This document shows positions 11,271 through 12,571 of a stretch of DNA of 32,000 nt, one piece after another. The stretch is from Verrucomicrobiota bacterium (GTDB lineage Bacteria > Verrucomicrobiota > Kiritimatiellia > UBA8416 > JABMPJ01): assembly GCA_018648805.1 (NCBI GenBank), contig JABGQM010000037.1, positions 1 to 32,000 on the forward strand, read 5' to 3'. The position numbers were made by a program, and so were the translations under genes. Within the stretch, counting starts at the first letter, position 1. Each line of letters begins with the position of its first letter. The notes under the pieces were generated by a model. The model ran no database searches and was not told the DNA's origin. It saw nothing but the letters and a program-made list of their open reading frames with translations.

Positions 11271-12287
11271 GTGTGCGTGACTGAAGCCGCCATAGAGCCG
11301 ATCGATTCGAGATTTAGCTGGCGCGACCGCCTGCAGGGGTGGCGCGTGCGCTGGGGCATCGGGCGTATGCGCTTTTCCGTGCGGCCCGGCCTGTATGCCT
11401 TGAACGAACCCACACCCGAGTCGGACGTCTTCGTCACGGCCAACTACAAGATGAGTGTGGATCATCTGCGTCGCGCCCTGGCGGGACGTCAGGGGTGGCT
11501 CCTCGTCCTTGATACGCATGGAATCAACGTTTGGTGTGCAGCGGGCAAAGGCACCTTCGGAACGGATGAGTTGGTCGAGCGAATCATTGAGACCGGGCTG
11601 ACGCGACAGGTTAGCCACAACAAGCTCATCTTGCCGCAGCTGGGCGGGGTGGGGGTCGATGCGGCTGCGGTGGGCAATGCGTGTGGCTTCACGGTACGCT
11701 ACGGCCCGGTACGTGCGGCGGATCTGCCGGCCTATCTCGACAACGGGTATCAGGCCGACGAGGCGATGCGGCGCGTCCGGTTCGATCTTGCTGACCGGGC
11801 GGCGCTCGTACCGGTTGAGATCGTCAATGCGGGCAAATTTATCCTGCCGGCCATGGCGATCCTATTCGTGCTCTCCGGTCTTTCACTGCGCGGATTCTCC
11901 GTAGCGACGATGGTCAGCCAGGGATCGGCGGCGGTGTTGGCGCTCGGGTTGGCATGGCTGGCCGGGACCGTAGCGGGACCGCTGCTACTGCCATGGTTGC
12001 CCGGACGCATGCTCTCCCTCAAAGGGGCCATGGCGGCGCTGCTGCTGGTTGGGCTCTTCTCCATTCGGATCCTGCCGGGATTGACCGGGTCGCTTGACCT
12101 GGCCGCTTTTTGGCTGGTGGTGCCGGTGGTGGCTTCATTCATCATGATGAATTTCACGGGCGCGACGCCCTATACATCGCCCTCGGGCGTGCGTCTTGAG
12201 ATGAAGCGGTCGGTTCCGCTCCAAGCGGCCGGTGCGGTGATGGCCCTGCTGCTCTGGTTGGCCCAGCGCGTGGTGGAGGTGTTGTGA
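11271..12287 (+). CDS. hgcA: HgcA, corrinoid protein of the mercury-methylation pair
   Basis: 338 aa. It has the exact cap-helix signature GINVWCAAGKGTFG (aa 84-97; Cys89 codon at 11535-11537). Upstream is the conserved RLQGWRVRWGIGR..FSVRPGLYALNEPTPESDVFVTANYK block. The C-terminal half has about 5 hydrophobic helices (aa ~180-335). GTG start (11271 or 11277) with no obvious SD, so the 5' boundary is uncertain. Confidence 0.85.
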   Translation: MCVTEAAIEPIDSRFSWRDRLQGWRVRWGIGRMRFSVRPGLYALNEPTPESDVFVTANYKMSVDHLRRALAGRQGWLLVLDTHGINVWCAAGKGTFGTDELVERIIETGLTRQVSHNKLILPQLGGVGVDAAAVGNACGFTVRYGPVRAADLPAYLDNGYQADEAMRRVRFDLADRAALVPVEIVNAGKFILPAMAILFVLSGLSLRGFSVATMVSQGSAAVLALGLAWLAGTVAGPLLLPWLPGRMLSLKGAMAALLLVGLFSIRILPGLTGSLDLAAFWLVVPVVASFIMMNFTGATPYTSPSGVRLEMKRSVPLQAAGAVMALLLWLAQRVVEVL

Positions 12288-12571
12288 TCCGCTACATTGA
12301 CAACGTGACCACCCTGCAGCTGGAGGCGGCAAAATGTGTTGGCTGCACCCGCTGCACACAGGTCTGCCCGCATGGCGTATTGAAAATGGATGGCAAGCGG
12401 GTTGAAATTATCGACCGCCATGCGTGCATGGAGTGTGGGGCCTGTGCCAAGAACTGTCCCACCGACGCCCTCACGGTCGATTCCGGTGTCGGCTGCGCCA
12501 TCGCCATGATTATCGGTTCCCTGCGCGGCACCGAACCCACCTGTGAGTGCCGTGGCGGCACGTATTGTTAA
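12284..12571 (+). CDS. hgcB: HgcB, 2x[4Fe-4S] ferredoxin partner of HgcA
   Basis: 95 aa. Two CX2CX2CX3CP motifs (CVGCTRCTQVCP and CMECGACAKNCP, the latter being the C(M/I)ECGAC HgcB signature). It has an additional conserved Cys in GVGCA (Cys71) and a Cys-rich tail, CECRGGTYC. GTG start overlaps the hgcA TGA (GTGA), and GGAGG lies just upstream. Confidence 0.85.
   Translation: MIRYIDNVTTLQLEAAKCVGCTRCTQVCPHGVLKMDGKRVEIIDRHACMECGACAKNCPTDALTVDSGVGCAIAMIIGSLRGTEPTCECRGGTYC

Follow-up and report, generated by a model that had tools for sequence, protein, structure and literature searches.

A complete hgcA-hgcB gene pair in 32 kb of DNA assigned to the Kiritimatiellia

The 32,000-nucleotide stretch of DNA analysed here (positions 1 to 32,000 of contig JABGQM010000037.1, from the Verrucomicrobiota bacterium assembly GCA_018648805.1; hereafter the window) carries on its forward strand two overlapping genes, hgcA and hgcB, and no genetic determinant of methylmercury formation by microbes other than this pair is known. 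The first of these, encoding the mercury-methylation corrinoid protein HgcA, extends from 11271 to 12287 (338 residues, GTG start and TGA stop, as read from the list of open reading frames (ORFs) and from the raw sequence), with an in-frame TAG at 11265-11267, just 5' of the start codon. Position 11271 is also a start codon in the orthologues of two related metagenome-assembled genomes (MAGs), one from the Black Sea (L001, GTG) and one from the Arabian Sea (L002, ATG). The second gene, encoding the ferredoxin partner HgcB with its two predicted [4Fe-4S] clusters, occupies positions 12284 to 12571 of the same strand (95 residues). Its GTG start overlaps the hgcA stop codon as GTGA, and this 4-base overlap is conserved in L001 and L002 (GTGA/ATGA), hgcB of L002 starting with ATG. 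Very probably, the two genes form an hgcA-hgcB operon that is intact and kept by selection, in a marine, fermentative and uncultured bacterium of the Kiritimatiellia.

Within HgcA, the cap-helix motif GINVWCAAGKGTF (residues 84-96, 11520-11558, forward strand) is found as an exact string match, and the cysteine that it contains, Cys89 (codon TGT, 11535-11537), is the counterpart of Cys93 in the HgcA protein of Pseudodesulfovibrio mercurii ND132 (formerly Desulfovibrio desulfuricans). In an alignment of 61 homologues, with identities down to 47%, the column of Cys89 is invariant, as are those of Asn86, Val87, Trp88, Ala91, Gly92, Lys93, Gly94 and Phe96. The pattern N[VI]WC[AS][AG]GK, which reads NVWCAAGK in the window (residues 86-93), is present at 81 of 84 loci, and the conserved N-terminal block of the protein is RWGIGRMRFSVRPGLYALNEPTPESDVFVTANYK. 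An earlier sequence-only reading of this DNA had singled out the cap motif, Cys89, the N-terminal block and the coupling through GTGA to a 95-residue dicluster ferredoxin; all of these are present, the motif and the cysteine codon exactly to the base and the gene pair at its stated coordinates. A Co-S bond, in which the HgcA cysteine thiolate is placed on cobalt, has been demonstrated experimentally by X-ray absorption spectroscopy for the HgcAB proteins of ND132 (PMC11588087), and by analogy Cys89 would provide the cobalt-ligating thiolate in the HgcA described here.

The assignment of both proteins is supported by curated profile models. HgcA scores 405.3 bits on the NCBIfam model NF040863 (HgcA_corrinoid; cutoff 275, E = 1.8e-121, covering positions 3-324 of 325), and HgcB scores 122.8 bits on NF040864 (HgcB_ferredoxin; cutoff 99, E = 3.9e-36, positions 1-93 of 93). 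On the model for HgcAB-like fusion proteins (NF043039), HgcA reaches 193 bits, below the cutoff of 285, and HgcB 57 bits, while on the model for AcsC, the gamma subunit of acetyl-CoA synthase and part of the corrinoid iron-sulfur protein (CFeSP), HgcA obtains 56.5 bits against a cutoff of 306, with the B12 domain alone covered. The Pfam matches are generic only (CdhD for HgcA and Fer4 for HgcB), and because Pfam sees no more than these generic domains, some database sources carry names for the homologues such as 'hypothetical' or 'acetyl-CoA decarbonylase/synthase gamma subunit'. A Pfam result of CdhD/CFeSP type alone, together with names of the latter kind, would also suit an ORF for a non-methylating paralog, which could be a corrinoid protein of AcsC/CdhE type (the CFeSP of the Wood-Ljungdahl pathway) or else a protein of the fused HgcAB-like kind. 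The probability of this is close to nil, however, as the AcsC and fusion scores lie so far under the 405 bits of the HgcA model that they already refute it; in addition, CFeSP has Thr at the position of Cys89 and no membrane domain, a TGA stop separates the two ORFs, and acs or cdh genes are absent from the 32-kb window. The HgcAB-like fusions are homologous to both halves of the pair, whereas the window encodes two polypeptides, each of which has its better score on its own model. To our knowledge, the fused HgcAB homologues put to an assay failed to methylate mercury. The evidence supports a true, unfused hgcA-hgcB pair in the window, neither CFeSP nor a fused HgcAB-like paralog, as the sequence-only reading had proposed.

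The predicted fold of HgcA agrees with this assignment. The corrinoid (B12)-binding domain comprises approximately residues 35-158 (11373-11744, forward strand; PDB sequence search, Foldseek and Pfam PF03599), to which the corresponding domain of the large CFeSP subunit (2h9a_A, 4c1n_A) aligns with E ~5e-10, placing Trp88-Cys89 of HgcA opposite Leu-Thr of CFeSP. No experimental HgcA structure was retrieved by the PDB sequence search, in which all matches were CFeSP B12 domains (2h9a, 4c1n and 4djd), aligned to residues 35-156. The AlphaFold2 model of HgcA, which was built on the 61-homologue alignment and includes no cofactor, has a mean predicted local distance difference test score (pLDDT) of 90.2 and a predicted template modelling score of 0.83, and has an alpha/beta domain at its N-terminus and, after it, five long helices, mostly with pLDDT above 90. 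These helices, assigned by DSSP to residues 180-201, 211-242, 248-266, 274-297 and 304-335, make up the C-terminal membrane domain (11808-12275, forward strand). Stretches above the Kyte-Doolittle threshold of 1.5 overlap all five of them, with hydropathy peaks greater than 1.8 for helices 1-4 and of 1.69 for the fifth, which is only weakly hydrophobic. The model and the hydropathy profile thus both bear out the C-terminal domain of about five helices that had been read from the sequence. In ND132 HgcA, a C-terminal transmembrane domain of about five helices is needed for activity.

In the PDB library, Foldseek places 9a0b_A first, a deposited computed integrative model of ND132 HgcA rather than an experimental structure (45% identity over 331 columns, E = 2e-21). 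The next matches are the corrinoid domains of the CFeSP large subunit (4c1n, 2ycl, 2h9a and 4djd), at 23-25% identity over only ~125 residues. The likeness between the two lies in the Rossmann-like B12 domain, the base-off corrinoid (predicted for HgcA) and the cap region, with Thr in CFeSP and Cys in HgcA. CFeSP also contains a TIM barrel and, at its N-terminus, a [4Fe-4S] domain, lacks the membrane domain of HgcA and takes its methyl group from methyl-tetrahydrofolate via the methyltransferase MeTr, not from S-adenosylmethionine (SAM).

The HgcB protein has cysteines at positions 18, 21, 24, 28, 48, 51, 54, 58, 71, 87, 89 and 95. The first eight fall within two cluster motifs on the forward strand, a CX2CX2CX3CP motif at 12335-12370 (Cys18, Cys21, Cys24, Cys28 and Pro29) and a second motif, CMECGACAKNCP, at 12425-12460 (Cys48, Cys51, Cys54, Cys58 and Pro59). 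The latter reads CMECGAC, and C[MI]ECGAC is found in all 75 complete HgcB relatives. Cys71, located in the sequence GVGCA (codon 12494-12496, forward strand), is the counterpart of Cys73 of ND132 HgcB, which is essential (PMC7305189). The pattern G[VTA]GC occurs in each of the 75 relatives, but was itself used to anchor the tail when these were kept from the loci with hgcB beside hgcA. The C-terminal tail, CECRGGTYC (12542-12568, forward strand), contains Cys87, Cys89, Tyr94 and Cys95, with Tyr94 (TAT, 12563-12565) taking the place of a Cys in the closest orthologues; the HgcB proteins of L001 and L002 finish with ...GGTCC. The HgcB features listed in the sequence-only reading, C(M/I)ECGAC, the GVGCA cysteine and a Cys-rich tail, are present, but the tail, with its three cysteines, lacks the usual vicinal Cys-Cys. 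Such a pair is not a defining feature of HgcB, since only 1317 of the 2432 paired sequences carry at least two cysteines in the tail (PMC7305189). In ND132 HgcB, at least one of Cys94 and Cys95 is required: the C94A or C95A substitution alone leaves the protein active, and the double mutant loses 95% of the activity (PMC7305189). Because the single mutants retain activity, the Tyr94/Cys95 tail variant would be expected to be functional.

Both genes are full length, without frameshifts or internal stop codons. The ratios of nonsynonymous to synonymous substitution rates (dN/dS), calculated against the orthologues of L001 and L002 and of a third relative, L003, are 0.09-0.13 for hgcA and 0.07-0.09 for hgcB, with dS between 0.85 and 2.1. 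Ratios of 0.07-0.13 against three Kiritimatiellia orthologues point to strong purifying selection on both genes. The Cys-to-Tyr change at position 94 of HgcB, which amounts to one G-to-A substitution when compared with the orthologues, raised the possibility that hgcAB is in early decay, a non-functional remnant heading for loss as in a fourth relative, L004, where a copy of the locus is eroded; the short N-terminus of HgcA could be taken in the same sense. This explanation was rejected on the dN/dS values and is extremely unlikely: both ORFs are intact, the short N-terminus is common to the whole clade formed with three other homologues (P0002-P0004), and ND132 HgcB mutated at one C-terminal Cys alone is fully active (PMC7305189). 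The GC contents at third codon positions, 0.76 for hgcA and 0.72 for hgcB, were moreover placed within the range of the neighbouring genes (~0.75-0.84). An intact pair that is kept by selection remains the preferred interpretation.

Relatives of the locus were sought in one genome per species, and the four that were found are all MAGs of the Kiritimatiellae/Kiritimatiellia. They are BS750m-G19 from the Black Sea (L001, JADHWE01; HgcA 85% identical), Arabian11_MAG_24 from the Arabian Sea (L002, JASLOA01; HgcA 86% identical), Arabian11_MAG_70 (L003; HgcA 68% identical, with similarity limited to the hgcAB pair) and GMC6.metabat2.87 (L004, JAOZSS010000123), which retains an hgcAB fragment only. 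The HgcB protein is 85-86% identical to those of L001 and L002. The window is collinear with L001, L002 and L004 in multi-kilobase blocks (~8-12 kb with the Black Sea and Arabian Sea MAGs) at 81-86% nucleotide identity, and has in common with L001 and L002 the order MnmL-like radical SAM gene, nucleotide-sugar dehydrogenase gene, hgcA, hgcB, a variable slot, oadA, oadB and Na/Pi transporter gene. This collinear nucleotide similarity to MAGs of the class assigns the host to the Kiritimatiellia, and the identity of 81-86% indicates a species different from those of L001 and L002. A 100% identical HgcA (P0001), with the same neighbours, is present on a 45.8-kb contig from the Joint Genome Institute (JGI; sample 3300072015).

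The fourth relative carries what could be a direct relic of hgcAB loss or, alternatively, a low-coverage assembly artefact. Positions 2998-3650 of L004 correspond to window positions 9708-12561, the segment of the sugar dehydrogenase, hgcA and hgcB genes, of which ~650 bp are left between the radical SAM and oadA genes, both intact. Of the sugar dehydrogenase gene, patches of 260 bp and 203 bp remain, and hgcA and hgcB have kept 100 bp and 90 bp of their 3' ends, respectively; the four patches are 84-85% identical to the window and are joined by deletions of ~0.25-1.3 kb. One of the junctions falls at an 11-bp near-repeat, CGGTCG(G/A)TTCCG, that is found in both hgcA and hgcB. If it is not an artefact, the L004 relic would match a report that the presence of hgcA is not phylogenetically conserved within the group.

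The similarities to the characterised system of P. mercurii ND132 extend to both proteins and to the two-gene hgcA-hgcB layout. The HgcA proteins have in common the corrinoid domain, the N(V/I)WCA(A/G)GK cap motif with its cysteine (Cys93 in ND132, Cys89 here) and the five-helix membrane domain, and the HgcB proteins the two CX2CX2CX3CP motifs, the downstream cysteine (Cys73 in ND132, Cys71 here) and C-terminal cysteines. In contrast to ND132, which is a sulfate reducer, the host of the window genes is a fermentative member of the Kiritimatiellia, and the pair differs further in its very short HgcA N-terminus, the 4-base gene overlap, the absence of an adjacent arsR-like regulator and an HgcB tail of the form CEC....YC instead of a terminal Cys-Cys.

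By orthology with the ND132 system, a mechanism may be proposed in which cofactor binding, expression and methylmercury production by the window pair are all predicted. HgcA would be anchored in the membrane through its five C-terminal helices, and its Rossmann-like domain at the N-terminus would bind the corrinoid, with the thiolate of Cys89 as the lower axial ligand of cobalt, while HgcB would be produced by translational coupling at the overlapping GTGA. The two [4Fe-4S] clusters of HgcB would reduce the cobalt to Co(I), which would be methylated by SAM to methyl-Co(III), and the methyl group would then be passed to Hg(II). The flexible HgcB tail (Cys87, Cys89 and Cys95), together with Cys71, may deliver Hg(II) to the cofactor and carry off CH3Hg+. 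That SAM provides the methyl group for ND132 HgcAB was shown experimentally, methyl-tetrahydrofolate having long been assumed to have this role (PMC11588087).

Several observations weigh against a functional and maintained methylation system. In the first place, the HgcA clade of the window and P0002-P0004 has the shortest N-terminus among the 61 aligned homologues (11271-11370), and lacks two elements found in most homologues, a leader that is often Cys-rich and a W..G...T segment (a strand); the curated HgcA hidden Markov model excludes this region. Furthermore, the cap region (residues 81-97, 11511-11561) is modelled by AlphaFold2 as coil with a pLDDT of 71-76 and not as a helix, which is likely to be a consequence of the corrinoid being left out of the model. 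The window HgcB is also among the 6 of 75 complete relatives without a vicinal Cys-Cys in the tail, a pair that the other 69 (92%) possess.

Regulation and field data add to these points. The hgcA gene lies 45 bp 3' of a nucleotide-sugar dehydrogenase gene on the same strand, an adjacency that recurs in L001 and L002. No sigma-70-like promoter was found in a scan of positions 11000-14000, and a scan for terminators around the pair gave no more than expected by chance. An arsR-like regulator precedes many Kiritimatiellae hgcA genes (PMC11984097), but none is adjacent here, where the 45-bp gap 5' of hgcA is too small to hold one. Given the short gap, with neither a regulator nor a promoter in the scanned region, co-transcription of the dehydrogenase gene with hgcAB is plausible in this lineage. 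As the sister genome L004 appears to have lost the locus, hgcAB would be dispensable in the lineage. At the level of the class, the Kiritimatiellae 'are not confirmed Hg-methylators', no member having been shown experimentally to methylate mercury (PMC10504345). In Lake Mendota, they accounted for 65% of hgcA copies and 16% of hgcA transcripts, and methylation was driven by sulfate reducers (PMC11984097).

It is thus conceivable that these are true hgcAB orthologues which add little or nothing to methylmercury here, whether through poor expression or through an unknown native corrinoid/SAM reaction to which mercury would be at most a side activity. The unconfirmed status of the class (PMC10504345), hgcA that is abundant yet under-transcribed relative to that of sulfate reducers (PMC11984097), the missing promoter and dedicated regulator with hgcA so close behind the dehydrogenase gene, the apparent dispensability of a locus eroded in L004 and the loss of the vicinal Cys pair all speak for such an outcome, which nevertheless appears unlikely, if with an appreciable chance of being right. 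All of the residues that mutagenesis has found to be required are present, purifying selection is strong, which shows the proteins to be in use, and canonical, unfused hgcAB predicted methylation capacity in all tested cultured organisms (PMC10469668). A maintained hgcA-hgcB operon with a predicted role in mercury methylation is therefore preferred.

The genes that surround the pair fit a saccharolytic, Na+-using fermenter, judging from their predicted products. Apart from the sugar genes, the window encodes an Fe-alcohol dehydrogenase, a 2-keto-3-deoxy-6-phosphogluconate aldolase, an AraC regulator, an inositol monophosphatase, a Na+/Pi cotransporter, a xylose-isomerase-like TIM barrel protein, a major facilitator superfamily transporter and a glyoxalase II, and no genes for sulfate reduction, iron reduction or methanogenesis were found within its 32 kb. 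An oxaloacetate decarboxylase cluster is located on the reverse strand at 15924-19219 and includes an alpha subunit of 610 residues (carboxyltransferase and biotinyl domains) and a Na+-pumping beta subunit of 382 residues (OAD_beta, 508 bits); its proteins are 90-96% identical to those of Kiritimatiellia MAGs. An ORF of 85 residues in the cluster has no family match and could encode the gamma subunit. The Na+ oxaloacetate decarboxylase and Na+/Pi cotransporter, along with the aldolase, alcohol dehydrogenase and sugar genes, are in keeping with the saccharolytic, Na+-bioenergetic host envisaged in the sequence-only reading.

The nucleotide-sugar dehydrogenase gene upstream of hgcA (9570-11225, forward strand, with the start as called by JGI) encodes a protein with the N-terminal, central and C-terminal UDPG_MGDP_dh domains of Pfam and a score of 186 bits on TIGR03026. 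As it has the same order with hgcAB in three genomes and is eroded together with the pair in the fourth, a functional tie between the two might hint at the native, non-mercury role of HgcAB that has long been sought, for example corrinoid- and SAM-dependent methyl transfer linked to cell-envelope sugar metabolism. Such a tie is very unlikely. Neighbouring genes were considered as functional partners of hgc and rejected, as none of the sugar dehydrogenase, aldo/keto reductase, NHL, kinase, DUF1638, URO-D-like and radical SAM genes recurs beside hgcAB at 80 more distant metagenome loci (L005-L084). The functional unit is hgcA and hgcB alone. The upstream radical SAM gene, also considered as a corrinoid-related enzyme, was discarded in this capacity, since its product is an equivalog of the tRNA-modification protein MnmL/YtqA (261 bits; cutoff 180).

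Between hgcB and the kinase gene is a variable slot (12589-14774) that lies outside the hgc system. In the window it contains an aldo/keto reductase gene (12631-13740, forward strand), whose product has a C-terminal 4Fe-4S dicluster domain, and a gene for an NHL-repeat protein (13779-14741, reverse strand), both absent from L001 and L002. In L002, the kinase gene is found directly 3' of hgcB, and in L001 a glutamine-synthetase-like gene lies between hgcB and oadA, with no kinase gene. The window differs from these two MAGs also in a DUF1638 gene inserted upstream and in an HgcB that ends in TYC where theirs end in TCC. Genes for a URO-D-family protein (5795-6886, forward strand; a weak Pfam match and no NCBIfam match) and for the DUF1638 protein (7701-8450, reverse strand; an insertion relative to L002 and L004) are situated 3-5 kb upstream of hgcA, and neither recurs near hgcAB at the other loci. 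Members of both families are often found alongside corrinoid methyltransferase systems. Across the entire window, including the region upstream of hgcA, an Rfam scan revealed no riboswitch, whether for cobalamin or SAM, a tRNA-Thr (CGT) at 156-231 on the forward strand being the sole match. Further downstream, the forward strand carries an ORF of 488 residues without a Pfam or NCBIfam match (24468-25934) and a gene for a 1053-residue protein composed of repeated TPR/YbgF(CpoB)/BamD-like units in 10 stretches (26025-29186), 3' of which lies an ExbB/TolQ-family gene (29217-29972).

In the sequence-only reading, the host had been put forward as a potentially non-canonical methylator. The idea is sound but not new, having been published for this group since 2019-2020. 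Obligately fermentative, polysaccharide-degrading Kiritimatiellaeota that carry hgcA were described from Lake Mendota in 2020, Kiritimatiellales rank among the principal carriers of hgcA in suboxic Black Sea water (PMC10469668, which also cites previous reports from lakes rich in sulfate and from the anoxic Baltic Sea) and Kiritimatiellae carry hgcA in Brownlee Reservoir (PMC10504345). The window represents an additional species of an hgcAB-carrying group that has already been described, and the picture of fermentative Kiritimatiellae as abundant putative methylators is unchanged. What the locus adds is a well-resolved 32-kb context for the marine Kiritimatiellia hgcAB clade, which has relatives in the Black Sea and in the oxygen-minimum zone of the Arabian Sea. 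The combination of purifying selection on the pair with an eroded copy in a sister genome fits the patchy distribution of hgcA reported for the class, and the identity of the hgcAB carriers in oxygen-deficient seawater affects models of how mercury enters marine food webs.

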